A program made the position numbers and the translations under genes. Below are positions 1 through 60,536 of a stretch of DNA of 60,536 nt, in pieces (positions within the stretch are counted from its first letter, which is position 1; every line of letters begins with the position of its first letter). The DNA comes from a virus. Lineage: Duplodnaviria; Caudoviricetes. Location: the IMG/VR virus record IMGVR_UViG_3300044648_000299, positions 1-60,536 of that record; one strand, given 5' to 3'. Under the pieces are notes generated by a model. It did no database searches, was not told the origin of the DNA, and saw only the letters and a program-made list of their open reading frames with translations.

Positions 1-127
1 TGGTGCTGGTGTGGGTGCGGCTGGTCGCGGTCGACGCGGTGTCGGCGACCCGCGGCGCGTACGAGCGGTACTACGTGCCCGGTGAGCCCCGCTGGCGGCA
101 CGTGATGTTCGGGTGGTCGCGGTGGCC
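1..127. repeat. Terminal direct repeat (assembly overlap), identical to 60410-60536; genome is circular or circularly permuted
   Basis: First 127 nt are identical to last 127 nt; the ORF from 60121 reads in frame across the junction into 3..269. Confidence 0.95.
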
Positions 128-269
128 GCGCGAGGGCGAGCCCCGCTCGCCGGTGCGGGCCACCGCGACCCGAACCGACCGTGAGCCGCCCCCTGCTCTT
201 CCTGCCGCGTCCAGCGGTCAGGCGGAAATTGAAAGTTCCACGATCGTCGTCAACTGGAGGACCCCGTGA
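3..269 (+). CDS. 3' part of a membrane protein that starts at 60121 and wraps the origin (about 185 aa), Spd/transfer-module protein
   Basis: In frame with ATG 60121; hydrophobic segment; GTGA overlap with next gene. Confidence 0.75.
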   Translation: MLVWVRLVAVDAVSATRGAYERYYVPGEPRWRHVMFGWSRWPREGEPRSPVRATATRTDREPPPALPAASSGQAEIESSTIVVNWRTP

Positions 270-583
270 GCACCCCCGAAACCACCACCACGACCGTCAC
301 CACCGGAGAAGGCGGCCTCGGCGCCTACCGCGCGTTCTGGCAGGGCATCGCCAGCACCGTGCAGCAGGGTGCCAGCTCCTGCGAGGCGACCATCGCCGAC
401 ATGAGCGGCCACGACTGGTCCGGCCCGCCCGTCGAGAACGGCAACCTCGCGATGGAGCTGCTGGGCAGGGCCGCCGACGCGGCCCTTGCGGCGGACGCGG
501 CGCTGGAGGAGTCGATGAAGGTCGCTGAGGCGTACGCCGCTGTGCCGTCCACCGGCGACAAGGAATCCGTCACCAACCTCTGA
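266..583 (+). CDS. Small helical protein with central W-S-G, WXG100-like / transfer accessory
   Basis: 105 aa, HDWSG at the midpoint, Ala-rich helices, GGAGG RBS, directly upstream of the FtsK-like ATPase. Confidence 0.6.
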   Translation: MSTPETTTTTVTTGEGGLGAYRAFWQGIASTVQQGASSCEATIADMSGHDWSGPPVENGNLAMELLGRAADAALAADAALEESMKVAEAYAAVPSTGDKESVTNL

Positions 584-689
584 CCCGAACCCTGCGCCTG
601 GACGAACCCGGTCCACACCCGCGTCACGGCGGAGCGCAGGGGCCACGCCTTGAAGCACCCACCTGCACCACCAGCGAGGAGTCAGCACC

Positions 690-2948
690 ATGACCGACCA
701 GGCGTCGACCACGATCGCGCGCTACGACGTGCCCGAGGGCGTGCTGGCACTGTCGAAGCGCGCCCGCACCGAACGATCCCTGGTGCTCCTGCCGGCCGGG
801 GCAGTCGGGGTGACGACGTACGCGGGCACGGCGCTGCACTCGCAGATGATGGCGGCGATGGCCGTGGGCGGCGCGGACATGCTCCTCGTGGGCGTCGGCG
901 CGGGCGCGGTCACCTCGACGGTGGCGACGGGCGCGGTGCTGCTGACGATGGCGAAGACCGGCACGTTCGAGGCGCTGCCAGCGCTGAAGCGTGTCCTGCT
1001 CGGATCGGCGGGCGCGGGTGCGGCGCTGGCGCTGTTCGGCGGGCACCCGTTGATCGTGGGCGGTTACTGGGTGGCGTCCGCGATCGGCGTGGGTCCGTGG
1101 ATGGCTCGGCGCGCGGCTGCGTGGCACGCGCTGCGGGGCGAGCTGAAGACGCTCCGTGAGCAGGTGCCGCCCGCCCTGCGCGCCGAGGAGGTCGTCGACA
1201 CCACGGACAGCGTCATCGACGGGGAGATCGTGTCCGATGACCCGCTGAACGTCGCCGAGTACGTGCAGCGGTGGGCCGCGGGGGTTGCCGTGCACCACCT
1301 GCCCGGCACGCACCTCACCACGCCGCGCCTGCACGCGGAGGGCCGGATCTCGTTCGTCGTGCAGTCCGGGCCCAAGGGGGTGACGTTGGAGGCTGCCAAC
1401 ACCGCCCGTTCCAAGATCGTCGGCACGTTGAAGCTCGCCCTGCCCGGACCGGACACCGGTGGGCAGGACATCGTGTTCGACCAGCCCACCGACGGCACGC
1501 TGATCGACCGCTCCCAGCTCCGCGCGCAGATCATCAACCTCAACGCCTCGACCGCGGTCAGTCGCCGCGTCACCGCCACCCTCGCCTCTGCCGAGGACAA
1601 CCCGTTCCGGGTCCGCATCGGCGGTTACCTCGACGACGGCTCCGACGCCCACTGGGATCACGCCGATCGCGACGGAGCCTGGTCCGGGGCGATCGTCGCC
1701 GGGACGGGCATGGGCAAGTCCAGTCTCGTGGACGCGCTGGCCTACGGGTCGAAGAAGCTGGGGTTCCAGATCGCGTTCCTGGACCCGCAGCGTGGCGCGT
1801 CGTCGCCGGTGCTGGTCGAGCACGCCGACTACCTGGGGCTCGGAGAGGAGGCGTCGGCACCGATGCTGCGATGGCTGGAGGCCGCCGCTGACCTGCGAGA
1901 GACCTGGATGGCAGCCCACCGCGTCGGGAAGATCACGTGGTGGACGACCGCGCCGTGCCTGCCCGGCGGGGAGCACCCGAACCCGAACTGCCCGTGCGGC
2001 GGAGTCGTCCCACCCGGCATCGACGCCTACATCGAGGAGTGCGATCAGGTGTTCGCGGCGCTGCTGCCCGGCACGAACGTTCGGCTCGGTGTGCCCTACG
2101 GGGCGCTGGCCAAGCGGATCCGCAAGCTCAACATGAAGATCACGGCGGTGACGCAGAATCCTGAGCAGAAGACGTTCGGCGGGTCGGAGCAGCTGCGGTC
2201 GAACCTACCGGTGCGCAACCTCCTGGCGATGCACGTGTCCAGCAACATCTCCGGCACCCTCATCCCCGGTCTGCCCTACAACCCGAAGCTCCTGCCGAAG
2301 ATTTCCGGGCGCGGCTTGATGTGCGGGCAGGGCTCGCGGGTTATGGAGGTGGTGCTGGACTGGGCGCCGCGCCGCGAGGATGCCGAGAAGGCGGGTGACG
2401 GGCCGTTCGTGGAGGACCTGTTCGAGGCGCTGCCGCCGTCGCAGCTGTACGAGCCGGACCGGCTGGCGGCGGTGGAGCACCTGCCTGCTGCGGGTGCGGA
2501 CGCGGCGCAGGTGTCGCAGCGCGCAGCGGAAGAGCGACTGGCGGCGCTGATGGCCGGCGCGACGCCGGTGGCCACGCCGTCAGCTCCAGCTGCGGCGTCG
2601 CTGCCGTCGCCGGTGATGTCGTGGCCGGCGCCGGTGCGGACGCCGAGCGTGGAGGCGCTGGCGGCCGTGCCGTCCAACGCCGAGGAGTTGCAGGCGGCAC
2701 TGGACGACGCAGTCGACCTGGTGGGCCGGGTGCGGGCGGCGGTGCGCGGCGTGCCGGACGAGCAGTGGCTGACGGCGGGCGAGCTGGCCCGGCGCATCGG
2801 CTGGGTGCCGCAGGACGCGGACACCGCGGTGCTGCGAGCACGAGCCCGTGAACTGGCGGCCGGGCTGGCGGGGGCGGGCGTGGAGTTCGTGAAGCGCGAG
2901 GCCGGCATGTCGGTGCGGGCGGGCCAGTTGCGGGCCGCGTGGTCGTGA
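690..2948 (+). CDS. traB: FtsK/SpoIIIE-family TraB-like DNA translocase
   Basis: N-terminal TM segments; Walker A AGTGMGKS; LDPQRG; Walker B AYIEECD; AVTQNP; Pro/Ala linker; C-terminal wHTH-like WLTAGELARRIGW; GAGGAG RBS. Confidence 0.8.
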   Translation: MTDQASTTIARYDVPEGVLALSKRARTERSLVLLPAGAVGVTTYAGTALHSQMMAAMAVGGADMLLVGVGAGAVTSTVATGAVLLTMAKTGTFEALPALKRVLLGSAGAGAALALFGGHPLIVGGYWVASAIGVGPWMARRAAAWHALRGELKTLREQVPPALRAEEVVDTTDSVIDGEIVSDDPLNVAEYVQRWAAGVAVHHLPGTHLTTPRLHAEGRISFVVQSGPKGVTLEAANTARSKIVGTLKLALPGPDTGGQDIVFDQPTDGTLIDRSQLRAQIINLNASTAVSRRVTATLASAEDNPFRVRIGGYLDDGSDAHWDHADRDGAWSGAIVAGTGMGKSSLVDALAYGSKKLGFQIAFLDPQRGASSPVLVEHADYLGLGEEASAPMLRWLEAAADLRETWMAAHRVGKITWWTTAPCLPGGEHPNPNCPCGGVVPPGIDAYIEECDQVFAALLPGTNVRLGVPYGALAKRIRKLNMKITAVTQNPEQKTFGGSEQLRSNLPVRNLLAMHVSSNISGTLIPGLPYNPKLLPKISGRGLMCGQGSRVMEVVLDWAPRREDAEKAGDGPFVEDLFEALPPSQLYEPDRLAAVEHLPAAGADAAQVSQRAAEERLAALMAGATPVATPSAPAAASLPSPVMSWPAPVRTPSVEALAAVPSNAEELQAALDDAVDLVGRVRAAVRGVPDEQWLTAGELARRIGWVPQDADTAVLRARARELAAGLAGAGVEFVKREAGMSVRAGQLRAAWS

Positions 2949-2981
2949 CCGCACCCCCACGGCGACTACGGATCGTCACGA

Positions 2982-3011
2982 AAGCCCCTTCCGGTGTCCC
3001 GGAAGGGGCTT
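2982..3011. terminator. Hairpin after traB
   Basis: AAGCCCCTTCCGG-TGTC-CCGGAAGGGGCTT, perfect 13-bp stem. Confidence 0.7.
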
Positions 3012-3017
3012 CGCCGT

Positions 3018-3222
3018 GTGTTGCAGGACCACCCGTGTCGTGTTGCAGGAGCCTGCAAGACGGCTGCAACACCACCTGCAACACCGTCAAGGCTGTGACC
3101 TGCGAAAACACGGCCAAATCGGGTAGGCTGCAAGACCTGCAACAGCCCGCGCAGACACACCGTTCCGCCCCGGTCACCTGCGGAAACACCCCGGAGACCG
3201 TGTCCGGCCCTCGTGTTGCAGG
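3018..3222. repeat. Array of (C/G)CTGCAA(C/G)A(C/G) motifs in both orientations, candidate cis-acting transfer or protein-binding locus
   Basis: Reverse copies at 3018, 3040, 3213; forward copies at 3052, 3063, 3075, 3127, 3136; two GT(G/C)ACCTGCG(A/G)AAACAC at 3095 and 3173. Confidence 0.8.
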
Positions 3223-3277
3223 AACACCGCCCACCACCCCACCCGCCGTGTACTCACAGTGAGATCGGAGGCCGTTC

Positions 3278-3799
3278 GTGCAGGCCACCCAGACCGACCA
3301 GTCCGGCGCTCTCGCGCTCGTCATCCTCCTCGTGGCGTTCGTGGTGTGGCGGTTCCGCACCACCGACGAGCGCCCCGCCCCGACCGGGGTCCGCCCCGAC
3401 GACGCGGCCGTCCCCGCTCCGGCCGCGCCCGCGGCGGCACCCGAACTGCGGGAGGTGGACTTCGTCCTCGCCCGCTGCGGACACCACGACCACCACCCCG
3501 GCCACGTCCCCACCGCGCCGATCCGGAAACGCACCGCGGGAATGGACGTGCGGGACATGCGGAAGAACGGGTGGGGATCGAACGACCGGATCACCCTGTG
3601 CTATTCCCACAATCTGCTCGGTTCGCAATTGCGGAACGTGCTGTTCGAGTGCGACCGGGGATGCGGTACCCGTGGGGATCTCGACGTCGGAGACGTTGAC
3701 GTGGGGATCGGGGACCTGCGGTACCGGGGATGGCGCAACGACGGGGATCTCCTCGTGTGCCCGTACTGCGCGGGGACCAGGTCCCGGCGCTGGAGGTAG
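3278..3799 (+). CDS. Membrane-anchored protein with Cys/His (Zn-finger-like) motifs
   Basis: GGAGG RBS; N-terminal TM helix; CGHH, CDRGC, CPYC. Confidence 0.65.
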   Translation: MQATQTDQSGALALVILLVAFVVWRFRTTDERPAPTGVRPDDAAVPAPAAPAAAPELREVDFVLARCGHHDHHPGHVPTAPIRKRTAGMDVRDMRKNGWGSNDRITLCYSHNLLGSQLRNVLFECDRGCGTRGDLDVGDVDVGIGDLRYRGWRNDGDLLVCPYCAGTRSRRWR

Positions 3800-4549
3800 G
3801 TCCCCAGATCCCCACGGGAACGGATCCCCACGGGGATATCCCCGCTGGAGTGGCAGGTCCCCACCGGGGCGGTCCCCACGGTCAGGTCCCCACCAAGCAC
3901 GGAAGATCCCCAGATCCCCAGATCCCCAGATCCCCACGGAGGTGGTCCCCATGATGGGAAGAACCCACGCGCTCACCGGCCTGTGCGCCGGCCTCGCCCT
4001 GGCACCGGTCGCGGTCGACACCGCAGCGCAGGCCGTGGTCCTGTCGGGAGTGACGGCGGGGTTCGCGCTGCTCCCGGACCTAGACCATCCTGGTGCGCGG
4101 GCGTCGCGGCTGCTGGGTCCGGTGACGGGCGGACTGTCGACGGCGCTGCGGGCGGGAAGCCGGTGGCTGTACGCGAGAACGCGGGGTCCCCGCGACGAGC
4201 GGCATCGTGGGGAGCATCGGCACGCCACGCACACGCTGCTGTTCGCGGTCCTCGTGGGGATCCTCGTCGCCGCGGGGACGAGGGGACTGGGGATGTGGTT
4301 CGTGCTGGGGACCGTGGTGCTGGGGACCGCGCTGGCGAGGGATGCACTTGGGGACTGGGTGCTTCCGGTGGTGGGGATCGCGGGGATCGCGGTGTGGGGA
4401 TCGGCCGGTGGGGATCTCCCTGGGGAGCTGGCGGGGATCGGGGTGTGGTTGGGGATCGCGGCGGGGACCGGGTGTTTCGTGCACTGCTTGGGGGATGCGG
4501 TGACGTTGTCGGGGTGCCCGTTTCTGTTTCCGTTACGGATTCGTGGGGA
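3573..4549. repeat. Polarised GGGGA motif cluster (about 40 copies by hand count) including tandem (AGATCCCC)x4 at 3904-3935
   Basis: 8 forward copies at 3573-3778, 12 reverse at 3799-3950, 18 forward at 4209-4549; copies occur in different codon frames. Confidence 0.85.
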
Positions 4550-4682
4550 GACGTGGTTCGAGATTCGGCCGCCGCGTGTTCTTCGTTTCCGGACGGGTGG
4601 GGTTGTGGAGCATCGGGTGGTGTTTCCGGTGTTTGTGGTGATCGCATTTTTGTTGGTGTTTCAGGTGCCGCTGGTTGCGTGA
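3951..4682 (+). CDS. Membrane-bound metal-dependent hydrolase (YdjM-like)
   Basis: MMGRTH, LLPDLDHP, HRHATHT, HCLGD..T.SG.PFLFP motifs; multiple TM helices; GGAGG RBS. Confidence 0.85.
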   Translation: MMGRTHALTGLCAGLALAPVAVDTAAQAVVLSGVTAGFALLPDLDHPGARASRLLGPVTGGLSTALRAGSRWLYARTRGPRDERHRGEHRHATHTLLFAVLVGILVAAGTRGLGMWFVLGTVVLGTALARDALGDWVLPVVGIAGIAVWGSAGGDLPGELAGIGVWLGIAAGTGCFVHCLGDAVTLSGCPFLFPLRIRGETWFEIRPPRVLRFRTGGVVEHRVVFPVFVVIAFLLVFQVPLVA

Positions 4683-4694
4683 CCTCGGCACGAC

Positions 4695-4722
4695 GAAGGC
4701 CCCCACCGTGGTGGGGGCCTTC
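4695..4722. terminator. Bidirectional terminator between convergent operons
   Basis: GAAGGCCCCCAC-CGTG-GTGGGGGCCTTC hairpin. Confidence 0.8.
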
Positions 4723-4749
4723 TCGCTGTCCCGGTCCGGCGCGGCGGGG

Positions 4750-5118
4750 CTACCAGGTGTCGGGGATGCGGACGACGTTGACGTTGGGGACGCCGGCGGC
4801 GCGGAGGGTGGCGGCGTAGTCGTCGAGCAGCGCCTGCGTCGCGGTGGCGCAGCCGTGCGGGCTGCACTCGAAGATCGTGAAGTTCAGCAGGCCGCCCCAG
4901 GTCACCCAGTCGTCCTTCGCGCCTCGCCGCCACGTGTCGGCGAGCTGGGCGAGTTCGGGGAGCCGGTCGAGCATGTCCTGGATCTTGGCGTGGGCCTGGT
5001 CGCGGTCGAGCGTGGTCTCCTCGCTCATCATCGACTCGGCCCGCGCGTCCTCTGGGACGAGGGTGATGGTGGCGTAGTGCCAGTGCTGCGGGGTGCTCAT
5101 GGCGTTCTGCTTTCTCAT
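4750..5118 (-). CDS. Hypothetical protein (alternative start 5100)
   Basis: 3' end of the long track ORF has normal composition; ATGA overlap with upstream gene. Confidence 0.65.
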   Translation of the reverse strand: MRKQNAMSTPQHWHYATITLVPEDARAESMMSEETTLDRDQAHAKIQDMLDRLPELAQLADTWRRGAKDDWVTWGGLLNFTIFECSPHGCATATQALLDDYAATLRAAGVPNVNVVRIPDTW

Positions 5119-5690
5119 CGGCTGCGGGCGTAGCCCTCGATGGCGGTGCGGGACCAGCGGGGCGTGCGGCCGACGTAGTGGGCGATGCCGGGCCAGCCCG
5201 CCGGGGGGTTCTTCGTGTAGTTGTAGAGGGTCGCCTTGCTGATCGGCCGCCCGAGGGTGCGCAGCAGGTCGAGGACCTGTTCGCGGGTGATGTAGTCGGT
5301 GTCGTCGACCAGCGCGTCGTCGTCGAGGTCCAGGTCGAGGTGGGCGGGCGCGATCGGCCGGTAGCCCAGGGGCAGCGCCGCGGCGTGCTCCTCCAGCAGG
5401 CTGGCCAGCGTCCACGGGCGGGCGTCGGGCCTGCGGCGGGGCCAGACCATGCGGTTGGCCCAGATGGTGCGGTGGGGGCGGTCCAGGGCGTCGGGGGTGT
5501 GCCAGACGGCCGCGGTCTCGGGGTCGATGCCCATCTCGCGGATGGTGCGCACCGACTCCAGGTGCAGCGAGCAGGGGGTGTGCAGGTCGTTGGCCGACCA
5601 GATGCGGGCGATGGCGGCGGCGGTGGGGCTGAGGTCGTCGAGTTCGACGTGTTCGACGCCTCGGGGGGTTTCGATGGGCACGGTGGGCAT
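5115..5690 (-). CDS. Protein with C-terminal AlpA/MerR-like HTH
   Basis: YITREQV...ISKATLYNY...GRTPRWSRTAI pattern. Confidence 0.65.
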   Translation of the reverse strand: MPTVPIETPRGVEHVELDDLSPTAAAIARIWSANDLHTPCSLHLESVRTIREMGIDPETAAVWHTPDALDRPHRTIWANRMVWPRRRPDARPWTLASLLEEHAAALPLGYRPIAPAHLDLDLDDDALVDDTDYITREQVLDLLRTLGRPISKATLYNYTKNPPAGWPGIAHYVGRTPRWSRTAIEGYARSR

Positions 5691-5729
5691 GGCGGTGTCC
5701 TCGCAGATCGTGGAAGCGGTGGGTGGTGG

Positions 5730-6341
5730 TCAGCCGAAGCAGTGCTCCATCGGGTCGTGGTCCGCGCAGCGGGAGCAGACGCGGCCCAGGATTCCGGAGC
5801 CGTCGGGGACGCTGGTCAGCTCGTCGCTGTAGCGGCTGCACGAGGCGCACCGGCCGCCGCTCGGGCGGTCGGAGTCGTGCATCGGGCGTTCGGCGCGGAC
5901 CCGGGTGAACTCGGCGACGCTGTAGGGCACGGCCGCGTCGGGGAAGGAGCGCAGCACACGGCCGACTCTGACGGTCTCGGTGGTGCCGTCGCGCTTGGTG
6001 ACGGTGACGGGGCTGTAGGTGCGCAGGTCGGCGAGGGGGCCGACGACGAGCCACTGTCCCTGGATGTTGGTGAACAGGGTTTTTCCGGCGCGGACCTGTT
6101 CGTGCATCTCCTGCTTGCGTGCTGCGGTTTCCTGCTGCGTGGCCGCCTTCTTGGTCTCGGCGGCGCGGGTCTGCTCCAGGGTGCTGGCGAGGTCGTTGGC
6201 CGCGGATTGGGCGGCGCGGTTGCAGGCGACGGGGTTGCCCGCGATGGTGATGATGCGGTCGTGGGCGGCGAGGAGCTGTTCGCGGGTGCCGCCGGCGGCG
6301 ATGACGCGGGTGAGGGTGGGGGTGAGGTCGTACTGGGCCAT
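5730..6341 (-). CDS. Hypothetical protein, C-terminal Cys (Zn) motif
   Basis: GAGGAG RBS before MAQY; CASC...CSRC. Confidence 0.7.
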   Translation of the reverse strand: MAQYDLTPTLTRVIAAGGTREQLLAAHDRIITIAGNPVACNRAAQSAANDLASTLEQTRAAETKKAATQQETAARKQEMHEQVRAGKTLFTNIQGQWLVVGPLADLRTYSPVTVTKRDGTTETVRVGRVLRSFPDAAVPYSVAEFTRVRAERPMHDSDRPSGGRCASCSRYSDELTSVPDGSGILGRVCSRCADHDPMEHCFG

Positions 6342-6375
6342 CGTGGGCTCCTCGTGTTGTTGACCTGTTGCACAC

Positions 6376-6410
6376 ATCGTATGAGTTCAACTCATGTGAT
6401 GTCAACTCAC
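6376..6410 (-). promoter_or_regulatory. SigA-type promoter with palindromic operator
   Basis: Minus strand TTGACA-18 nt-TACGAT; palindrome ATGAGTT-N-AACTCAT at 6381-6395 in the spacer. Confidence 0.8.
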
Positions 6411-6488
6411 GCGATTGGGCAACATCTGGACAGCAGAGCGCCCCGGCCGCGTCGAAGACGACCGGGGCGCAGACCAGCAACGGCGAAC

Positions 6489-7028
6489 TCAGCGGCGCCG
6501 GGCAACCGCGACGAGCACCGCGGCGGACAGCACGGCCAGCGCCCGGTGCGCGGCGTCGTCCAGCACCATCCACGCCGTGCCCGGCCCCACCGTCCCCGCA
6601 GGCTCGCCGGGCTGCCGCACGACCGTCCCGAAGTCCACGTACCCCTGCTTGCGCGTGAGCCGGACGAACGCCCGCATCAGCGGACCCCGGTCCAGGGCGG
6701 CGTGCGTGATCACGTTGACCGCGCTGGCCGCGAGCACCGCCCCCGCGGGCACACGGAGCCCGCACAGCCGGGCTAGCGCGAGGAACCCGCCGAAGTTCAA
6801 TGCCTCGTGGGTGATCGCGTGGCGACCGGCGGAGATCCACGCTCTGGTGTCGCGGGTGACGGCCCACCTGCTCGGGGTGGGCTGGCCGGTCCAGGGGTGG
6901 ACCAGGTCGCGGCCGGTGTTGCGCTTGTCGAGGGCGTCGTCGGAGCGCTGGCACCAGTTGTCGCAGGCGGGGTGCAGCGCCTCGAAGGTCGCGATGCGGA
7001 GGGCGAGGAGTGCGGCGGGGTGGTCCAT
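6489..7028 (-). CDS. DUF3307-like membrane protein
   Basis: H..xD(N)W.Q, HAITH, THAALDR, LDDAAH motifs with hydrophobic stretches. Confidence 0.65.
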   Translation of the reverse strand: MDHPAALLALRIATFEALHPACDNWCQRSDDALDKRNTGRDLVHPWTGQPTPSRWAVTRDTRAWISAGRHAITHEALNFGGFLALARLCGLRVPAGAVLAASAVNVITHAALDRGPLMRAFVRLTRKQGYVDFGTVVRQPGEPAGTVGPGTAWMVLDDAAHRALAVLSAAVLVAVARRR

Positions 7029-7111
7029 GCTGGGTGTGCTCCGATCCGTGGGTTTGGGGCGGGCTGGCCCGGCGGGTGGCTGTGGAGGCGGACCCGCCGG
7101 GCCAGGCGGGG

Positions 7112-7447
7112 TCAAGCCGGGCGGGTGTCTCTCCAGCCGCGGGAGTAGACCTTGGCGAGCTTCGCGGCGATCACGGCTTCGAGGTCGATCTTCATCTCGG
7201 CGGCGGTGACGAACGCGGTGATGACGACGTCGGCGAGTTCGTCGTGCATCTCCTCGGCGGTGCCGACGCGGCGGGCCTGCCCGGTGTAGCGGCGGTAGGC
7301 GCCGACGAACTCCCCGACTTCCTCGGCAAGGTTGAGGACCTGGCGCTGCACGGCGGTGTCCGGGTCGAAGCCGGCGTCGCGGAGCTTCCAGGTGATGTCC
7401 TCGGCGATGTCGGGCAGGGACGCGAGGGTGGTCGGGTTGGCGGTCAC
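7112..7447 (-). CDS. mazG: MazG-like nucleotide pyrophosphohydrolase
   Basis: LAEEVGEF...DELADV motif. Confidence 0.85.
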   Translation of the reverse strand: MTANPTTLASLPDIAEDITWKLRDAGFDPDTAVQRQVLNLAEEVGEFVGAYRRYTGQARRVGTAEEMHDELADVVITAFVTAAEMKIDLEAVIAAKLAKVYSRGWRDTRPA

Positions 7448-7644
7448 GGGTTGAGTCCTTCCTCGGGGCGGAGGCCGAGTGCGTCGAGCAACAGGGCCAG
7501 GTCGGCGGCGTCGCGGGCGTGGTTTCCGGCGATGGCCCGCACAGCCCGGCGGCGCTGTGCGGGTGCGACGCGGCCCTGCTGCTCGGTGAGCGGCACGGGC
7601 CGGGCGGTGACGCTGCCGCGGCCAGCAGCGAGATCCGCGCCCAT
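7444..7644 (-). CDS. Small hypothetical protein
   Basis: Stop/start coupled to both neighbours. Confidence 0.6.
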   Translation of the reverse strand: MGADLAAGRGSVTARPVPLTEQQGRVAPAQRRRAVRAIAGNHARDAADLALLLDALGLRPEEGLNP

Positions 7645-8084
7645 CACGCCACCTCCACCAGCAGCCACAGCCCGCACGCCGGCGGCGGCAGGATCTCCGG
7701 CATCCGCTTCGTCATGTGCTCCGGCGTGTCATCCGGCACCAGGTGCAGGCCGGGCAAGTCCTTCCGGCCGCGGGCCAACGCGTCGCACATGACCTTCTGG
7801 AGCGCGACGAGGTTGTCCACGTCCGCCCGGCGCCGGTCGCCGGGTGCCCACAGGAGCTGCACGGTGATGTGCTCGCCGGCGGGGATGCGGCCAAGGCGGG
7901 CGAGGAGCACGACGTCCTCGATGACCTGCTTCACGGCGCGGTGGCGGATGGCCCAGTGGCCGGGTCGGGCGTTGCCGCGGAGGGTGTCCCACACGAGGCG
8001 CTTGCGCTTGCCCCGGACGATCTCCCACGCGGTGTCGTAGCGGGGCAGGTTGAGCCGGTAGGTCTGGCCAGTTGAGGGGATCAC
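7644..8084 (-). CDS. rusA: RusA-like Holliday junction resolvase
   Basis: RRRADVDNL...K...DAL...PDD motif; GTGA-coupled start. Confidence 0.8.
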   Translation of the reverse strand: MIPSTGQTYRLNLPRYDTAWEIVRGKRKRLVWDTLRGNARPGHWAIRHRAVKQVIEDVVLLARLGRIPAGEHITVQLLWAPGDRRRADVDNLVALQKVMCDALARGRKDLPGLHLVPDDTPEHMTKRMPEILPPPACGLWLLVEVA

Positions 8085-8623
8085 AGGCCCTCCCCGGTGG
8101 CGGCGGGTGAAGACGAGTGCGGCAGCGACGCGAACTCGCGGCCGAGCACGCTGTCCTTCTCGCGGGCGATGTCGTGCTGCTCGACGGTCCAGGTCGCCCA
8201 CTTCCTGAGTTGGCGGGCGCGGGTGTGCAGGAGCTGGCGGGCCTCGAAGCTGAGGATGGGGGTGGGCAGGTTGGCGAGCCGGTCGAGCTCGTCTGCGATG
8301 GCGGCCCAGACCGGTGCGAGGGGGTGCAGGTCCTCAGCAGCGGGGAGGTCTTGCGGTTCCGGGGCCGGGCCGGGACCGGGGTGGACGAGCACGGCCACCG
8401 CGGCGTTCCACGCGGCCACCACGTCGCGCCCCAGCAGGTGGCGCCACCCCTCGCGGCGGGACCTCTCTTCTGTGGCGCGCAGCCACAGCGACAGCGGCTC
8501 CCGCAGCGCCTCGGGTTGCATTGCGCTCAGGTCGTGCACGGCTTCGAGCAGCACGGCCCGGAACCGCTCGACGGTGACGCCGCTCATATCGGAGTCGACG
8601 CGGGGGTACAGGTCGTCAGCCAC
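8081..8623 (-). CDS. Hypothetical protein
   Basis: Coupled in operon, GGAGG RBS. Confidence 0.65.
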   Translation of the reverse strand: MADDLYPRVDSDMSGVTVERFRAVLLEAVHDLSAMQPEALREPLSLWLRATEERSRREGWRHLLGRDVVAAWNAAVAVLVHPGPGPAPEPQDLPAAEDLHPLAPVWAAIADELDRLANLPTPILSFEARQLLHTRARQLRKWATWTVEQHDIAREKDSVLGREFASLPHSSSPAATGEGL

Positions 8624-15814: not shown

Positions 15815-16154
15815 TGCTGGTCTCCGTCCTGCTCGTCGTCGCGGGCGGGGGTCGAGGGCTCGGGCGGGGTGGGGAGTTCGGTGTCCGTGGGCGGGCCCAG
15901 CACGACGCGCTCCGCGAACTCCCGGAAGCCGCCCATCACGCGTCGGCCTGCTCGTCGGCCCGGAGTGCGGTGGCCCGCTCGGTCAGGGTGGTGGCGAACT
16001 CGCGGTAGTCCTCGGCGCGGACGCGGTGGCCGGCGTCGGCGAACTCCTGCGCGGTGCCGTCGGCGACGGCGGCGATGCGGTCCAGCTCGTCGGCGGTGGC
16101 GTTCTGGGTGCCGGGCGTCAGGACGGTGGTGACGGACGGTCGGGTGGTGGTCAT
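15811..16154 (-). CDS. Two small ORFs (15811-15936, 15936-16154)
   Basis: Coupled; first gene downstream of promoter at about 16190-16221. Confidence 0.5.
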
Positions 16155-16187
16155 GTGCTCTCCCGTGGTGGGGACGTTCGCTGTAAC

Positions 16188-16223
16188 GCCTAATCTACGC
16201 CTAATGACTGCCTAAAAACAAGC
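16188..16223 (-). promoter_or_regulatory. Early leftward promoter/operator copy 2
   Basis: 28 bp identical to 23580-23607; three GCCTAA at 11-bp spacing; TTGTTT-18-TAGATT. Confidence 0.8.
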
Positions 16224-16241
16224 GATACGAACATGTCAAAG

Positions 16242-16868
16242 TCAGGACACGTCCGGATGCGTGAACCTCTCGACCTCGGCCAGCGCATCCTCACGCGCAC
16301 CCCGAGGCGTCTCGACGACCACCGCGTCCACGCGAGCCGGATGCGCCGTAGACCTCGTCAGGGCCTTCCCCCGGTGGTCCACGCACGGCTGACCGACACG
16401 GGCACCGCAGTGGCTGCATGGCCGGGACCGCAGTTCACGCCTTACCACCGCCTCGCCCTCCGCGATGTCGTCCACGTCATCCGGAGGCGTGTCACTGCGG
16501 CGGAGCTTGCGGCCCTCCAGGACGGCCTGGACCTGGTCCATGCCGTGCCGGAAGCGCTGCGGGTCGAACGCGACGGGCGGCAGGGCGCGCATCGTGGCTG
16601 CGTTCTCGCCGGTCTTCTCGGCGGCAGTCGGGCGGCGCCGGGCGTTCCACCACTGCACGATGTCCGCGGGGGCGATGGTCTCGCGGCGCTGCGCGTACTC
16701 GTCGGACCGGTAGTGCGCGATCACAGCGTTCTGTGCGGCTTCGATCGGCACGTCGTGCAGGGCCTTCGCCCAGACCTTGCGGATCAGACCGGCCTCGTCG
16801 GGCTGCGGCATCTTCGGGTCCAGGCTGATGGCGATGAGCAGGACACGGCCTGCTTCGTGCTCGTTCAC
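16242..16868 (-). CDS. Putative helicase loader/inhibitor-like replication protein with C-terminal Zn finger
   Basis: Follows initiator; W..AL.D.P...A..AV..HY...I.PADI; CSHCGA..G.PC...H..R. Confidence 0.65.
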   Translation of the reverse strand: MNEHEAGRVLLIAISLDPKMPQPDEAGLIRKVWAKALHDVPIEAAQNAVIAHYRSDEYAQRRETIAPADIVQWWNARRRPTAAEKTGENAATMRALPPVAFDPQRFRHGMDQVQAVLEGRKLRRSDTPPDDVDDIAEGEAVVRRELRSRPCSHCGARVGQPCVDHRGKALTRSTAHPARVDAVVVETPRGAREDALAEVERFTHPDVS

Positions 16869-17851
16869 GCGGAACGCCCTCCTTCGATGACCAGCCAGTC
16901 GTGTGCAGGGCTGGCGGCGTGGTTGCCGATGACGGCTTGCCGACTGGCTTCGTACTGGTCCCAGAACGGGTCGTCGGGCGCGAGAGCAGCGAGGGCCTTG
17001 TCCATGCGCTTCGAGCCGGAAGACACTCGTCCTGGGACTGCTGCTGCGAGGCCAGCACGACGTTCGTCTAGGCGCTTCTGCTCTTTGCGCATCCAGACCT
17101 GCCAGGCACCGCGCCAGTCCTTCTTCCGGGCGTTTTTGGTGGCCTGTCGCCAGTAGTCGACGAAGAGGTCGGTTTCGGCTTGGCCGACGGACGGGGTGTT
17201 CTCCCTGGCCCACTGGATCATCTCGGGCGTCGCGGTGAAGTTGTCGGGGATGCGCGTCGCCTGGCTCGGGGGGGTAGCGCGCTTGCGCGCTACACCCTCC
17301 GAAGGAGGGTGGTTGTTAGTGGGATGGGATGGGATGGGATGGGAGAGCTGGACTCCCTCCGGGACTCCCGCCGGGACTCCCGCGTCTGTCCCTGGGGGAC
17401 ACACATCTTTGACCTGCAGTTCCGCAAAAAACGGGTCATTGGACTCCGGCGGGACTCCGTTATGGTCCGACGGAACTCCGGCAGCCGTACGCGTGTACTT
17501 TTTCCTCTCGTTTTCGCCGGAATCTTTCGGAGCACGCTGTCGGGCCTTCTTCGCGGCCTCCGCAGCACGCCGCTCCTCGACCTGCTGACGAGTTTTGTTG
17601 CGGCCCGGCGCGGCCCAGTCGTGGAACTGATAGCCCCCGCGAACGTCGCGGTGCCACAGTCCGGCCTTGACGAGCCGCTCGGCCTGCGCGGGCGTGCCGA
17701 GCACGGCAACCATGTCGTCGGGCACGTACCCATCGGTGAGCTGCTGAGCGCACCACGAACCTGCGCGGGTCCACAGGCCGATGGCGGCGTTGCCGGCGCG
17801 CACCGCTTTGTGATGGAAGGCGAATCCATCGTCGACGGGGAACCAAGGCAT
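16865..17851 (-). CDS. Phage replication initiator (RepA-like)
   Basis: MPWF.VDDGF..H.K; GLW..AGSW; TDG.VP; HDW; C-terminal F.DYW...KKDW..AW..W; internal iterons. Confidence 0.8.
   Translation of the reverse strand: MPWFPVDDGFAFHHKAVRAGNAAIGLWTRAGSWCAQQLTDGYVPDDMVAVLGTPAQAERLVKAGLWHRDVRGGYQFHDWAAPGRNKTRQQVEERRAAEAAKKARQRAPKDSGENERKKYTRTAAGVPSDHNGVPPESNDPFFAELQVKDVCPPGTDAGVPAGVPEGVQLSHPIPSHPTNNHPPSEGVARKRATPPSQATRIPDNFTATPEMIQWARENTPSVGQAETDLFVDYWRQATKNARKKDWRGAWQVWMRKEQKRLDERRAGLAAAVPGRVSSGSKRMDKALAALAPDDPFWDQYEASRQAVIGNHAASPAHDWLVIEGGRSA
17321..17479. repeat. Iteron-like origin within the rep gene
   Basis: (GGGAT)x4; GGACTCC at 17350, 17362, 17374, 17441, 17452; GGAACTCC at 17472; A/T tracts nearby. 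Confidence 0.65.
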
Positions 17852-17889
17852 AGTGCTGGCCTCCTGAGAGGTGCGTAGGGAGGCGGTTG

Positions 17890-18129
17890 TCAGGCCGCGG
17901 TGGTCGTCTTGCGGCGCCGCATCTTCCGGCGCTCGTACTCGGAGGTGCCGCCCCAGATCCCGAAGCGCTCATCGCGCTCCAGGGCGGCAGCGAGGCAGGC
18001 GGTGCGCACTTCGCAGCTACGGCACACGGCCTTGGCGTGACCGTTGGGCTCGCCCTTCTCGGGGAAGAAGGCCTCGGTGCCGATCTCGCGGCAGCGAGCC
18101 TGCTCCTCCCAGTCCTGCCCGGTGCTCAT
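17890..18129 (-). CDS. whiB: WhiB-family transcription factor
   Basis: W...A.C...FFP...AK.VC..C.V...CL..AL...FGIWGG.SE.ER. Confidence 0.95.
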   Translation of the reverse strand: MSTGQDWEEQARCREIGTEAFFPEKGEPNGHAKAVCRSCEVRTACLAAALERDERFGIWGGTSEYERRKMRRRKTTTAA

Positions 18130-18919: not shown

Positions 18920-19612
18920 TCAGGCAGCAACGGCCTCGGGCCTGGCGGGTTCAGTGGTGTCGTGGGGCGGAGCGAAGAACGGCACGGAGGCGGCCGACTC
19001 GTTCACCGGCATCAGCAGAGCGCGGTAGCGCTCGCCGACCTGAACGAAGTTCGCCTTCTTCACGCGAACCGTGGTGAACGTGAAGCGCTCGCCACGCCGC
19101 TTGGCAACCGCCAGAGGAACGGAGAGCCACCGAGGGTCGAACGTCACTGCGTCGCCGGTGGCGGCGTCCTCGTCAGGCGCGAACAGCTTCGCCATCTTCG
19201 GGAAGCTGTCGTGCTGGTCCCCAACTGGCACGGTGATCGACACGGCGGGCAGGACGATGTCACCGGGCTGGCGCACGACCAGCTTGTCGTCCGCGATGCT
19301 GAGCTCAGTCAGCAGATTGTTCGCCCGCGTGTAGGGCTTCAGGATCGCCACGATCTGCTTGACGCGGGACAGGTCCAGCCATAGTGGCGCAAGGTCGCCG
19401 CCAGCGTTGATGAACGCTTGCGCAGCGAGAAACCGGTTCGTGCTGGTACCCACGAGCACCTTGGTGCCGTCGTGGTCAGCCAGGTGCAACAACACGCCGT
19501 TGATCATCGGAAGGGCGCTGTCGTCGCTCGCCGACCGCATCAGGTCCACGAGCAGGCCGTGAAACTCAGCGGGATCAACGGTCAGGGACGCGGCGGTCTT
19601 GGTCGTGGTCAC
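18920..19612 (-). CDS. DNA polymerase III beta-clamp-like protein (truncated DnaN family)
   Basis: AS.D..LP.INGVLL; STNRF.A; FP; F.PR.L; ALLMPV. Confidence 0.7.
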   Translation of the reverse strand: MTTTKTAASLTVDPAEFHGLLVDLMRSASDDSALPMINGVLLHLADHDGTKVLVGTSTNRFLAAQAFINAGGDLAPLWLDLSRVKQIVAILKPYTRANNLLTELSIADDKLVVRQPGDIVLPAVSITVPVGDQHDSFPKMAKLFAPDEDAATGDAVTFDPRWLSVPLAVAKRRGERFTFTTVRVKKANFVQVGERYRALLMPVNESAASVPFFAPPHDTTEPARPEAVAA

Positions 19613-19854
19613 GCGGACACCAGCTCTCGGTAGAGGTTGTTGCAGTCGTCGCAGTTGCACAGCGGAATCTGGCTCCACCTGGTGCCCGGCTCGCTGACCG
19701 TGGACACGGGGGCGCCCATGTCGTCCCAGGTGGGCATGACCTCGGACTCACCGGGGACGGCGCCGGTCCTGCACGGGCAGTGCAGGCACGTCGCGCCGTC
19801 GTGGAACATCGCCAGGTGAGTGCAGGTGGTACAGCGGTGGATGATGATCGACAT
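19609..19854 (-). CDS. Cys-rich small protein, paralog of 15076-15336
   Basis: MSIIIHRC..C.H...CPC...PTWD...ELVS. Confidence 0.7.
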   Translation of the reverse strand: MSIIIHRCTTCTHLAMFHDGATCLHCPCRTGAVPGESEVMPTWDDMGAPVSTVSEPGTRWSQIPLCNCDDCNNLYRELVSA

Positions 19855-58888: not shown

Positions 58889-59653
58889 GTGACCAGCCAG
58901 GCTGACCGCGACCGGCAGACCCTCAGCGCCATCTCCACGGGCGTGTGGGTCGTGGCGTTCGTCGTCATGGCCGTCTCGGCCTCCACCGCAGCGGACCTGA
59001 TGTCCAAGCACGGGATGCAGTGGCGGGCCGGTCTCGCGATCGGCATCGCCACCGACATCGGCCTGTGCATCGGCCTGCTCGGCGACCAGACCCTTGCCCG
59101 CCTGGGCACGAAGTCGGCGTGGTCGACCCGGTTGCGCTGGGTGGGGCTGGGCATGAGCTTGGTGTTCAACTGCACCGACGCCATCGGAGTTGGAGACCAG
59201 CTCGGGGCGGTGCTCCACGGGTCACCGGTGCTGCTGTTGCTCGTGCTCACCGAAGCCGCTCAGGACTACCGCATGAAGTTGGCGCACGTCACCGAGGCCG
59301 CCAAGCCAGCGCCAGTGGGCGTTCAGCGTCAACCTGCTGCTGTTCCTCATGGGGAGCGCCCGTTACAGCCGCCGAGCCCGCCCGCGAAGACCGTGCCGTC
59401 GAAGCCGGTTGCGCCCGCGATCGAGCAGGCCCGCCCCTCGAACGTCACCCCCATACGGGCCACTGGCACTAAGACGCAGAAACAGTTGGTCGACGAATGG
59501 TTCGCCGCCGAAGTCGGCCGCCGCGGCGGTGACCCCGATGCCGTGACGGGCCCGATGCTCGCCGCCCAGTTCAGCGCTCCGCACCTCGCCAAGAAGATCA
59601 CCGATGTCCGGAAGCGGTACCTCGCCGCGAACCCCACCGCAGTCAACCAGTGA
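58889..59653 (+). CDS. Spd-like (DUF2637-type) multi-TM spread protein with C-terminal DNA-binding-like tail
   Basis: 4 TM helices; D.GL..GL.GD; W...LRW; SL..N; HG.P.LLL...EA; Pro-rich linker. Confidence 0.7.
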   Translation: MTSQADRDRQTLSAISTGVWVVAFVVMAVSASTAADLMSKHGMQWRAGLAIGIATDIGLCIGLLGDQTLARLGTKSAWSTRLRWVGLGMSLVFNCTDAIGVGDQLGAVLHGSPVLLLLVLTEAAQDYRMKLAHVTEAAKPAPVGVQRQPAAVPHGERPLQPPSPPAKTVPSKPVAPAIEQARPSNVTPIRATGTKTQKQLVDEWFAAEVGRRGGDPDAVTGPMLAAQFSAPHLAKKITDVRKRYLAANPTAVNQ

Positions 59654-59681
59654 GCCCCCACCAGGGCGGAAGGACCTGACC

Positions 59682-60116
59682 ATGAACGGCACCATCGTCA
59701 GCACGAGCGTCGTGGGGTTCGTGCTCCTCACCCTCGGCGCGATCATGATGTGGAAGAAGAAGTCCCTGAAGGTCGTCACCTGGCTGTGGTTCCTCGGCGG
59801 CCTCACCGTCTCCGGTGGCCTCATCGCCACCCTTCAGGACGTCCTGCGCCAGGCCGGAGCTGCCGGCGGGAGCGCGCTGGGCATCGGCGTGAACGTCGTC
59901 CTCGGCGTCGTGGGCCTGGGGGCGCTGTACGTGGCGTGGCTGGAAGCGCCGCTGAAGAAGGGCAAGGGCACCCCGAAGGCTTCCACCCCGTTCCTGGCGC
60001 TGGTCGCCCCGATCCTGATCCTGACCACGACCGGGACCCTGGCCGGGTGGTTCGGGGCGCTGGGTGCGTTCGTCGGCCGCCTCGGCGGGCCGCTGGCCAC
60101 CTTCTTCGGGGCGTGA
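59682..60116 (+). CDS. Multi-TM membrane protein (Spd-like)
   Basis: RBS; 4 hydrophobic helices. Confidence 0.7.
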   Translation: MNGTIVSTSVVGFVLLTLGAIMMWKKKSLKVVTWLWFLGGLTVSGGLIATLQDVLRQAGAAGGSALGIGVNVVLGVVGLGALYVAWLEAPLKKGKGTPKASTPFLALVAPILILTTTGTLAGWFGALGAFVGRLGGPLATFFGA

Positions 60117-60120
60117 CGAC

Positions 60121-60536
60121 ATGGGCCTGTTCCTGCTCGTGCTGCTCGTCGCCTGGTTCATCGTCTACCGCACTGGCGCCGACGCGACGTCGATCGCACG
60201 CAGCGGACTGGCCTGGTGCGCGGATCGGCTCGGTGGTGTCGCCGATCGGCTGGCCTCGCGTTCCCCGCTCCTGGCCGGCCTCCTCGGCAAGGGCGCGCGC
60301 GCCGTCGCCGCCAAGCTCAGGCCGCGACACACGCCGATGCAGCCGCGCACCTCCGATGGCCAGGCTCTCCTCAACGCGGCCGGTGGACTGACCGCAGTCG
60401 GGGTGGTGCTGGTGCTGGTGTGGGTGCGGCTGGTCGCGGTCGACGCGGTGTCGGCGACCCGCGGCGCGTACGAGCGGTACTACGTGCCCGGTGAGCCCCG
60501 CTGGCGGCACGTGATGTTCGGGTGGTCGCGGTGGCC
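60121..60536 (+). CDS. 5' part of the origin-spanning membrane protein (continues to 269)
   Basis: MGLFLLVLLVAWFIVY; open through the junction. Confidence 0.7.
   Translation, partial: MGLFLLVLLVAWFIVYRTGADATSIARSGLAWCADRLGGVADRLASRSPLLAGLLGKGARAVAAKLRPRHTPMQPRTSDGQALLNAAGGLTAVGVVLVLVWVRLVAVDAVSATRGAYERYYVPGEPRWRHVMFGWSRW

Follow-up and report, generated by a model that had tools for sequence, protein, structure and literature searches.

Two short-repeat arrays accompany a TraB-like pump gene in a tailed actinomycete phage, one of them overprinted on two genes

The stretch of DNA analysed here is the whole of virus record IMGVR_UViG_3300044648_000299 (Duplodnaviria; Caudoviricetes), 60,536 nucleotides that we call the window. 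Near a gene for a TraB-like DNA translocase, the motif GGGGA recurs about 40 times over two neighbouring genes, orf173 and ydjM, and this raises the question of what the repeat, termed array B, is for and which protein reads it. The initial annotation had proposed a candidate transfer locus acting in cis (clt) made of TraB recognition sequences (TRS), that is, a loading and direction signal for the adjacent TraB. Our analysis indicates that array B is a real DNA-level feature under selection, overlaid on two genes through codon choice, and comparison of related loci suggests that it is probably not the word read by the pump itself. We tentatively favour, as plausible rather than established, the reading that a different set of repeats, array A, is the clt/TRS of the pump and that array B serves the same cassette as a second cis site, one that evolves separately and has another reader.

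Array B comprises a left arm (3572..3778, plus strand) with eight GGGGA, six of them as YGGGGAYC, in the 3' half of orf173; a core (3799..3951, minus strand) with 12 copies, 11 as YGGGGAYC, in the 152-bp spacer between orf173 and ydjM; and a right arm (4185..4549, plus strand) with 18 GGGGA in ydjM, ten as YGGGGAYC, plus one reverse copy at 4185. The hand counts made at first sight were exact (8 GGGGA at 3573-3772, 12 TCCCC at 3801-3946 and 18 GGGGA at 4209-4545), and one forward GGGGA, at 3832, lies amid the 12 reverse spacer copies. The perfect 8-bp tandem core described there was recovered by Tandem Repeats Finder at 3904-3936 (period 8, 4.1 copies, 100% match, unit AGATCCCC). The last reverse copy of the core overlaps the ribosome site and start codon of ydjM. 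When 42 sites in 3400-4700 were aligned, the motif lengthened to the 8-bp word YGGGGAYC, often GTGGGGAYC: position -1 was T in 27 and C in 13 of the 42, the base after GGGGA was T in 23 and C in 16, and the next base was C in 30.

The genome holds 93 GGGGA and 72 TCCCC in total. Bins 3001-4000 and 4001-5000 contained 9+14 and 21+1 copies (forward plus reverse), and elsewhere no 1-kb bin had more than five forward or four reverse copies, in agreement with the claim that the density is far above the rest. YGGGGAYC occurred 41 times in the genome against 21.35 +/- 4.23 after dinucleotide shuffling (0 of 100 shuffles reached 41); 28 of the 41 fell within 3572-4469 (898 bp), and outside array B there were 13 (3 forward, 10 reverse), about 21 being the genome-wide expectation. 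Unbiased clustering of k-mers across the entire genome returned two strong clusters only, array B and array A (3018-3222).

The copies fall in all three reading frames, as originally stated (3/3/2 in orf173 and 6/2/10 in ydjM). The codon-preserving control for GGGGA that the initial annotation had suggested was run by within-gene synonymous permutation: orf173 carried 8 copies against 3.32 (3 of 2000 permutations reached 8) and ydjM 18 against 8.9 (0 of 2000). Resampling from genome codon usage gave 1.44 and 2.89, respectively (0 of 2000 each). The TraB-like gene was unenriched, with 2 copies against 4.37 by synonymous permutation and 3.09 by codon-usage resampling. Both overprinted genes are thus enriched and local composition is no explanation. 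Glycine codons were skewed in the same direction: ydjM uses GGG for 21 of its 35, and the remainder of the genome for 316 of 1403. The proposal that synonymous codons were recruited to carry the motif therefore stands for orf173 and ydjM, where both codon-aware controls were exceeded, and in relatives amino acids were changed as well.

Within the genes the forward word encodes Gly-Ile, Gly-Asp or Trp-Gly, and the reverse word would force Pro; in the spacer, the reverse orientation keeps Shine-Dalgarno-like GGGGA runs away from the ydjM start. The forward-reverse-forward pattern alone is no demonstration of a direction signal. The ydjM frame is open for 738 bases upstream of its start, through the spacer and into orf173 (3213-4682, plus strand, a mechanical open reading frame (ORF) of 489 aa), probably as a by-product of the stop-free repeat word.

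We compared the locus of this window (W) with related loci, L001 to L013, fetched by scans with an alignment of 30 TraB-like homologues; a single-protein scan of genome contigs returned nothing, and the alignment-based scans succeeded. Eleven of the 13 fetched loci were analysed, L002 (homologue 27% identical) and L012 (contig ends inside the gene) being dropped. The TraB-like family is rare in the genomes searched: the alignment search gave matches in at least 2 of 401 (order) and at least 6 of 401 (family) of G001, which are floors because the first look was stricter. Comparable k-mer clusters were absent from the distant matches L020-L023. In the distant L002 (Micromonosporaceae), 9 of 16 CCGTTCC copies lay in one 1.2-kb window at about 15700, some 7 kb from the pump homologue.

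Gene order was kept as TraB-like gene, array A, orf173 homologue, array B and ydjM. As the cassette genes alone were common to otherwise unrelated phage backbones, array B travels with the TraB cassette, and its assignment to a conserved TraB-containing cassette holds. Relatives were found integrated in chromosomes. Array B was present in 10 of the 11 related loci, its dense stretch running from within the orf173 homologue (3' half) as far as the ydjM homologue, and none was seen in L011. It kept its place and changed its word: GGGGAYC in W, L003, L006 and L010; a GGTACC-based word, in 31-34 copies, in L005; a mixture of GGGGAYC and GGTACC words in L001, L004, L007, L008 and L013; and CGGACC in L009, where 32 forward copies (in all three frames) and 9 reverse copies lie over a different, inserted gene. 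The forward-reverse-forward layout was retained in all five of the five single-word loci W, L003, L005, L006 and L010.

Array-B copies occupied the same ydjM codons in all relatives, so that Gly-Ile of W (GGG ATC) became Gly-Thr (GGT ACC) in L005 and the mixed loci, and Gly-Asp of W became Gly-Tyr in L005. By synonymous permutation, ydjM of L005 had 9 GGTACC against 2.04, ydjM of L010 had 11 copies against 2.91, and L009 had 32 copies of its array-B word against 18.1 (0 of 2000 in each case). The ydjM protein is altered at fixed codons to carry the new word, which argues that array B is selected as nucleic acid.

Two further features of the relatives concern array B. The gene inserted between the orf173 and ydjM homologues of L009 (5561-6625) encodes an N-terminal helix-turn-helix (HTH), a low-complexity 'GPDRT'-like linker and a DUF2637-type membrane domain, and the linker arises from the 32 forward CGGACC copies in three frames. 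Between L001 (10873-10972) and L004, whose DNA is otherwise 93-98% identical there, the array-B spacer forms a second divergent patch (54 of 100 columns identical, 40 gaps); the alignment indicates that the spacer core changes length quickly.

The question of which array the pump reads was approached through array A, the proposed clt/TRS (3018..3222, no strand assigned), which consists of eight exact CTGCAAS and two degenerate CCTGCGRAAAC sites in both orientations, the central sites being 11-12 bp apart. It sits in the 330-bp gap between the TraB-like stop and orf173, 3' of a perfect 13-bp hairpin with a 4-nt loop (2982..3011, plus strand; a 100% complementary inverted repeat after the traB-like stop codon) that is probably a terminator. 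Eight of the 28 genomic CTGCAAS copies lie in 3020-3221, and 11.66 are expected genome-wide. Array A begins 70 bp past the TraB-like stop at 2948 and array B 624 bp past it, with the hairpin, array A and half of orf173 between that stop and array B. The element (T/C)(G/C)ACCTGCG(A/G)AAA occurs in array A of the window (3097-3110 and 3175-3188) and also in L003, L005, L006, L009 and L010, with one or two copies per locus inspected, independent of the local array-A word; in several loci that word lies directly 3' of it. The element may be part of a promoter or a common anchoring site.

Array A was found in 11 of 11 relatives, directly 3' of the pump gene, its core typically having two to four sites in one orientation and then three in the other, in 10-12-bp steps. 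Its word was paired with the sequence of helix alpha-3 in the winged helix-turn-helix (wHTH) at the C terminus of the pump: CTGCAAC with [LR]RA[RI]AR in W, L004, L007 and L009; CTGCAAAG with VQxA[SG]R in L001, L008 and L013; ATGCAAG / CTTGCAC with VKVAAA in L003 and L005; and (CTG)ATGCA with VR[VR]RA[KR] in L010 and L006. The word of L011 was GGCAGGA. These classes of the N-terminal half of alpha-3 matched the array-A word despite pump bodies that were only 45-56% identical. Among TraB columns private to L001 and L008, four of seven lay within residues 675-746, as did two of the three private to L010 and L006 within residues 709-714. The DNA of L001 and L004 was 88-98% identical through the pump body, 54-73% across L001 9892-10472 (about 580 bp comprising the wHTH-coding end and array A), and again 93-98% in the orf173 homologue, whose protein is identical at 147 of 156 residues. 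Reader and site, the wHTH and array A, thus appear to have been exchanged as one module.

The array-B word behaved differently. The VKVAAA type of wHTH was common to L003 (GGGGAYC) and L005 (GGTACC), and the [LR]RA[RI]AR type to W (GGGGAYC), L009 (CGGACC) and L004/L007 (mixed); no TraB column was uniform in the four pure-GGGGAYC loci and absent from the rest. The check for co-variation of motif and wHTH, raised with the initial annotation, was made, and the array-B word does not follow the wHTH.

Published clt loci provide a further comparison. Known clt are described as 7-9-bp repeats with wHTH alpha-3 as the reader (PMC3583192, PMC4447253, PMC10191066). The clt of pWTY27 is reported to take in 16 bp of traA and 159 bp next to it and to hold four 7-bp repeats; that of pJV1 is described as nine 9-bp repeats; and pSVH1 as having 8-bp repeats read by helix alpha-3 (PMC3583192). 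The characterised clt covered by that source abut or overlap the tra 3' end and hold 4-9 repeats (PMC3583192). By analogy, the position and size of array A match characterised clt loci and those of array B do not.

That array B is itself the clt/TRS, with the TraB winged helix reading YGGGGAYC and the orientation flips loading and directing the pump, we consider unlikely. It would account for a many-copy 8-bp word that lies 0.6-1.6 kb from a TraB-like gene and always travels with one, and TRS are reported to be 8-bp repeats (PMC4447253, PMC4170104). It would also fit a residue position just before alpha-3 ('ADT') that is common to the four pure-GGGGAYC loci W, L003, L006 and L010 and found in none of the other seven. 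Against it, equal wHTH types occur with different array-B words, no TraB column is private to the loci with the G-type word, and a different array abuts the pump gene and swaps together with the wHTH; moreover, clt as described hold 4-9 repeats at the tra 3' end, not about 40 over 1 kb (PMC3583192). From the original proposal of a candidate clt/TRS locus, the multiple copies of an 8-bp word were borne out; location at the tra 3' end and co-variation with alpha-3 were not. The specific claim that the TraB winged helix reads array B is not supported, with alpha-3 tracking array A and different array-B words found with the same wHTH type.

The pump itself is encoded at 690..2948 on the plus strand (752 aa) and was assigned from its fold and architecture. 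The AlphaFold2 model (mean predicted local distance difference test (pLDDT) score 81.8) begins with four long helices, continues with an FtsK-type motor and ends in a predicted winged helix; the long hydrophobic helices are at residues 16-157, and a helix-helix-helix-hairpin at residues 661-743 (pLDDT 85-94) has alpha-3 at residues 712-728. Foldseek against PDB matched the FtsK motor (6t8g_C, expectation value (E) 3.5e-11, template modelling score normalised to the target, TM(target), 0.65; 2ius_D, TM(target) 0.68) and the FtsK-like coupling protein TcpA (6o1w, E 7.6e-11). The TraB-like homologues share an invariant Walker-A-like G-x4-GKS at residues 338-344 (G338, G342-K343-S344). By sequence the protein had no Pfam, PHROG or PDB match, and its identity to plasmid proteins reaches no more than 33%, along part of the chain. 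Its homologues carry the database labels 'TrmB family transcriptional regulator' (Prauserella) and 'sigma-70 family' (plasmid relatives). The published TraB architecture consists of N-terminal membrane helices, an FtsK-like motor and a C-terminal winged helix (PMC4447253, PMC3583192). In the model, fold and architecture agree with the earlier description of the adjacent protein as TraB-like, and we regard the 752-aa protein as a predicted TraB-like double-stranded DNA translocase, a candidate for DNA movement between cells or hyphal compartments.

As only the cassette is common to the loci, the reader of array B should be a cassette protein or a host factor. The likeliest candidates, each a domain that could plausibly lie in the cytoplasm, tethered to the membrane, and bind DNA, are the C-terminal domain of a DUF2637-like membrane protein and the Cys/His domain of orf173. 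The former is cassette gene 1 (58889..59653, plus strand), with a membrane domain, a Pro-rich linker and a C-terminal three-helix domain (about residues 184-254). A feature search of a protein atlas placed it with DUF2637 clusters (0.89, 190 shared features; a lead only), and its L005 homologue matched Pfam DUF2637 at E 1.9e-4, under the cut-off. The protein is a mosaic of membrane and linker parts in which the C-terminal domain of about 70 aa is the most conserved and is kept in 9 loci; its three helices end in a basic helix. L005 alone has HWKRKV in place of the HL[KR]KKI of the others. In L009, a DUF2637-type membrane protein with a different, N-terminal HTH is encoded directly under the differently worded array, and with its membrane domain it matches L004's first cassette ORF (E 6e-5). 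A PDB profile search with the C-terminal domain gave only chance-level matches (E 0.22, 0.37), Pfam on 9 members gave single faint ones (HTH_72 0.054, Myb/MADF 0.058-0.13), and a large-database search with residues 180-254 found only the protein itself.

The second candidate, orf173 (3278..3799, plus strand), carries array B in its own 3' half. It was described from an alignment of 16 homologues and an AlphaFold2 model (pLDDT 83.7) as an N-terminal membrane helix followed by a Cys/His-rich domain, with C67, C108, H111, C125, C129, C161 and C164 invariant in the 16 homologues. Foldseek gave no fold match at E <= 0.001 in PDB or BFVD, the homologues had only faint zinc-ribbon matches in Pfam, and a PDB profile search returned 0 matches. 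A DHHP...LCxxHN pattern prompted a test of orf173 as a His-Me/HNH nuclease; this was rejected, the best Foldseek matches having E 1.4 (PDB) and 0.03 (BFVD, small zinc-finger-like phage proteins), so that the nuclease reading is unsupported.

Several observations weigh against the assignment of array A to the pump and array B to a second reader. The 'ADT' signature mentioned above is one. The wHTH/array-A association could partly reflect physical linkage, the two adjoining each other, and the TraB-like gene has no Pfam FtsK_SpoIIIE match. Neither candidate reader has a recognised DNA-binding fold in the Pfam, PDB and BFVD searches. Nor does either follow the array-B word at the level of whole-domain identity: the W copy of orf173 shares 48-53% identity with those of L003, L006 and L005 alike, and the DUF2637-like C-terminal domain is 43-54% identical to all. 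The three array-B words are one-step neighbours of GGGACC, which suggests homologous readers in all loci, a picture hard to square with the non-homologous HTH of L009. One locus each represents the pure GGTACC type and the pure CGGACC type. Finally, the forward orientation within genes may only reflect coding limits, leaving functional polarity unproven.

With its dense, short repeats running both ways and its contiguous tandem core, array B resembles iteron or centromere arrays, and it might accordingly be a maintenance site unrelated to transfer, either an iteron-type origin or a centromere-like partition site; we regard this as distinctly unlikely. A Streptomyces plasmid iteron region, that of RepA of pWTY27, is described as containing five GTGGGAAC and five TTCCCAC, direct and inverted 7-8-bp repeats of similar composition with a similar-looking word (PMC3583192). 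These iterons are reported from a 300-bp non-coding region beside the rep genes (PMC3583192), whereas array B lies over two membrane-protein genes with no recognised initiator. A precedent inside a gene is also on record, SpdA2 of pIJ101 binding its specific site sps within spdA2 and affecting stability (PMC4170104). This resembles array B in that a transfer-region protein has its specific site inside the coding region of the module (PMC4170104); sps is a single short palindrome affecting stability, whereas array B has about 40 asymmetric copies over two genes, and no SpdA homologue was identified in the phage. The maintenance explanation is countered by Pfam finding no ParA, ParB, ParM, TubZ, Rep, primase or helicase in 82 of the 83 called ORFs (tape-measure gene excluded), with the limit that divergent proteins could escape Pfam detection. 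Moreover, the array travels with the cassette, so an initiator or partition protein must be a cassette membrane protein, and the tyrosine integrase and chromosomally integrated relatives mean that a plasmid state is not required.

It is improbable, in our estimate, that array B works through a host factor (an FtsK-like or nucleoid protein) or serves as a target zone for a nuclease or modification enzyme. A reader specified by the host would account for the lack of a cassette protein that follows the word clearly, and all three words hold short palindromes (GATC, GGWCC, GGTACC, CGGWCCG), of the kind recognised by restriction-modification enzymes. On the host chromosome of L006 (G130, 8.2 Mb), however, GTGGGGATC occurred 49 times forward and 65 times reverse with a weak strand-bias shift along the positions listed, about 1 per 72 kb, which is not like the FtsK-orienting polar sequences (KOPS). 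KOPS are polar chromosome-wide words. The phage arrangement resembles FtsK gamma/KOPS in its 8-bp asymmetric word, FtsK-family motor and winged-helix reader, and differs in that the word is clustered in 1 kb rather than skewed replicon-wide, with no strong polarity in G130. YGGGGAYC as a KOPS-like polar word was accordingly rejected, 28 of 41 copies being in one 0.9-kb cluster and the bias in G130 (49 against 65) being weak. For a modification target, Pfam found no methyltransferase or nuclease family among the scanned phage ORFs, the His-Me/HNH reading of orf173 is unsupported, and a phage would normally be under selection to lose a cluster of about 40 restriction sites.

The layout of the array might also be taken to act as RNA or DNA structure, through alternative pairings controlling ydjM or through a minus-strand G-quadruplex formed by (GGGGATCT)x4, and this we judge very improbable. 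Copies in the spacer are the complement of those in the two flanking genes, the forward-reverse-forward layout is found in all five single-word loci, and compensatory change would be expected to alter the word on both arms at once. The last core copy is placed over the ydjM ribosome site and start codon, and RNA of 3560-4559 was predicted to fold at -557.6 kcal/mol, while 20 shuffles gave -520.4 +/- 10.4 (z = -3.6). This z-score is expected anyway given the inverted copies, and there was no Rfam match. Pairing requires complementarity, not about 40 irregularly spaced copies of one word; the three bases that follow GGGG show the same degree of conservation as the G run, which a quadruplex would not need. 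The L009 word has GG runs only, with 32 forward copies against 9 reverse.

We return to the reading in which array A serves the pump and array B has a second reader. The phage would carry a transfer/spreading cassette in the style of Streptomyces plasmids, with five small membrane or helical proteins, a TraB-like pump and two cis arrays. Array A (CTGCAAS, directly after the pump gene) would be the loading site of the pump, and a second sequence-specific reader, other than the TraB winged helix, would bind array B; selection on array B sets the choice of codons in orf173 and ydjM and, among relatives, amino acids too. Many membrane-anchored copies of that reader would coat about 1 kb of phage DNA next to the clt, and the coated DNA would be held at the membrane beside the TraB pore, array B acting as a tether. 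Loading at array A, the pump would then drive double-stranded phage DNA into an adjacent hyphal compartment or cell.

A comparable arrangement is known from Bacillus sporulation, where RacA-ram with SpoIIIE provides envelope tethering of DNA for an FtsK-family pump. The proposed role of array B would resemble it in that many copies of a short word near one locus allow a protein to fix DNA at the envelope; it differs in having no RacA homology and in spanning 1 kb as opposed to hundreds of kb, and the analogy is a functional one only. We infer binding, reader identity, tethering and transfer, the tether being proposed by analogy with the TraB-Spd membrane complex reported for intramycelial spreading (PMC4447253).

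The Streptomyces TraB-clt/TRS systems (pSVH1, the TraA-clt of pWTY27, and pJV1) appear closest to the phage cassette, with a membrane-anchored FtsK-like pump and a winged helix as in our model. They are also described as having 7-9-bp repeats adjoining the pump gene and small 'Spd'-like membrane genes in the operon (PMC4447253, PMC3583192, PMC10191066). Unlike those plasmids, the cassette here belongs to a temperate tailed phage that also encodes terminase, portal, capsid and integrase, and unlike the Streptomyces systems the phage has two arrays, array B with about 40 copies in about 1 kb of coding DNA and a word independent of the wHTH.

The other cassette genes lie upstream of the pump. Cassette gene 2 (59604..60116, plus strand) is an ORF supported by G+C content at third codon positions (GC3) and encodes a 170-aa hydrophobic protein whose membrane character was read from sequence; it has homologues in L003, L005, L001, L007, L008 and L010 and matched no Pfam or PHROG family. 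Cassette gene 3 encodes a membrane protein of about 186 aa and is split by the ends of the record into a 5' part (60121..60536, plus strand), which spans the 127-bp terminal repeat, and a 3' part (3..269, plus strand) that is open across the junction once the repeat is removed; homologues are at L005 7012-7608 and L003 1620-2195. Directly upstream of the TraB-like gene, cassette gene 4 (266..583, plus strand, GC3 0.92) encodes a 105-aa acidic helical protein with homologues in L005, L007, L008, L009, L010 and L011, and its sole match, to PPE (E 0.008), was sub-threshold. The four small upstream genes and the TraB-like gene form one plus-strand cassette. At its other end, ydjM (3951..4682, plus strand) encodes a 243-aa inner-membrane protein of the YdjM family (Pfam YdjM E 6.8e-24; phrog_20744 E 1.1e-41), with GGAGG 6 bp upstream of its ATG. 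A GC-rich hairpin read from the sequence (4695..4722, no strand assigned), between the convergent ydjM and minus-strand genes, marks the cassette end. A consensus scan of 2900-4800 listed 0 promoter-like sites and 1 weak terminator-like site, and not the hairpin at 4695..4722.

The window is a complete genome with a 127-bp direct terminal repeat, giving a unique length of 60,409 bp. The repeat is perfect (1-127 = 60410-60536), and the gene for the cassette membrane protein of about 186 aa spans it (about 60121 to 269); repeat and spanning gene together indicate that the genome is either circularly closed or terminally redundant and that the ends of the record fall inside a gene. It is the genome of a tailed temperate actinomycete phage. 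The large terminase (48555-50225) is at most 58.5% identical to Streptomyces and Arthrobacter phage terminases; in the remaining ORFs Pfam matched portal, major capsid, decoration, Dit and lysin domains, and it matched a tyrosine integrase at 25053-26288. Genome G+C is 66-73%. Homologues of the gene neighbouring array B occurred in Pseudonocardiaceae-type genomes (Lentzea, Saccharothrix, Actinosynnema, Prauserella) and in soil metagenomes. Matching fragments were present in 6 soil-metagenome contig sets from 3 studies, no RNA data set being among those listed; the 4 sets compared were identical and held no informative variants. No tRNA genes or Rfam families were found in the whole genome, and a search of a phage collection, from which the record itself and near-identical ones may be absent, with window positions 1-8000 (nucleotide) and with the TraB-like protein gave no match.

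Elsewhere in the genome, the stretch 16200-17900 has lower G+C (0.678 for 16001-18000) and no ORF passing the GC3 filter, and a small cluster of CCGGGACTCC-like repeats lies inside it at 17356-17458; it could be a regulatory or origin region. PHROG matches to a RusA-like Holliday-junction resolvase were found at 7644-8201 (minus strand, E 8.2e-9) and 18920-19678 (minus strand, E 1.8e-19). Among 54 phage ORFs there were matches to a WhiB-family protein, HTH_31, DUF5753 (E 5.2e-48) and DUF397, families typical of actinomycete developmental regulators.

The overprinted array is unusually strong. It offers a clear example from nature of protein sequence giving way to a DNA signal, with Ile changed to Thr and Asp to Tyr at fixed codons, and such cases help to calibrate the non-coding information capacity of coding DNA. 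The natural swap of wHTH and array A between L001 and L004 offers a ready pairing of recognition helices and words for the study of reading by the FtsK family. TraB-type conjugation with clt has so far been a trait of plasmids and of the integrative and conjugative elements of actinomycetes (AICEs). Homologues of SpdB2 are reported on some actinophages (PMC4447253), and the full-text literature consulted, as titles and the starts of abstracts with few subscription journals, yielded no TraB-like pump with cis sites in a tailed phage.

On a broader view, doubtful but worth stating, these loci would represent a temperate phage family of mycelial actinomycetes with a complete plasmid-type machine for the transfer and spreading of double-stranded DNA and two independently co-evolving cis sites, a clt/TRS for the pump and a 'tether' of 40 copies in roughly 1 kb, overprinted on two genes. 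The overprinted array would then be a new kind of membrane-anchoring centromere, in which changes of the word drag amino acids along, and the phage genome could move between hyphal compartments or cells without virions. If the cassette works, it would give the phage a second, virion-free route of spread, which bears on how infection and lysogeny propagate through a colony.

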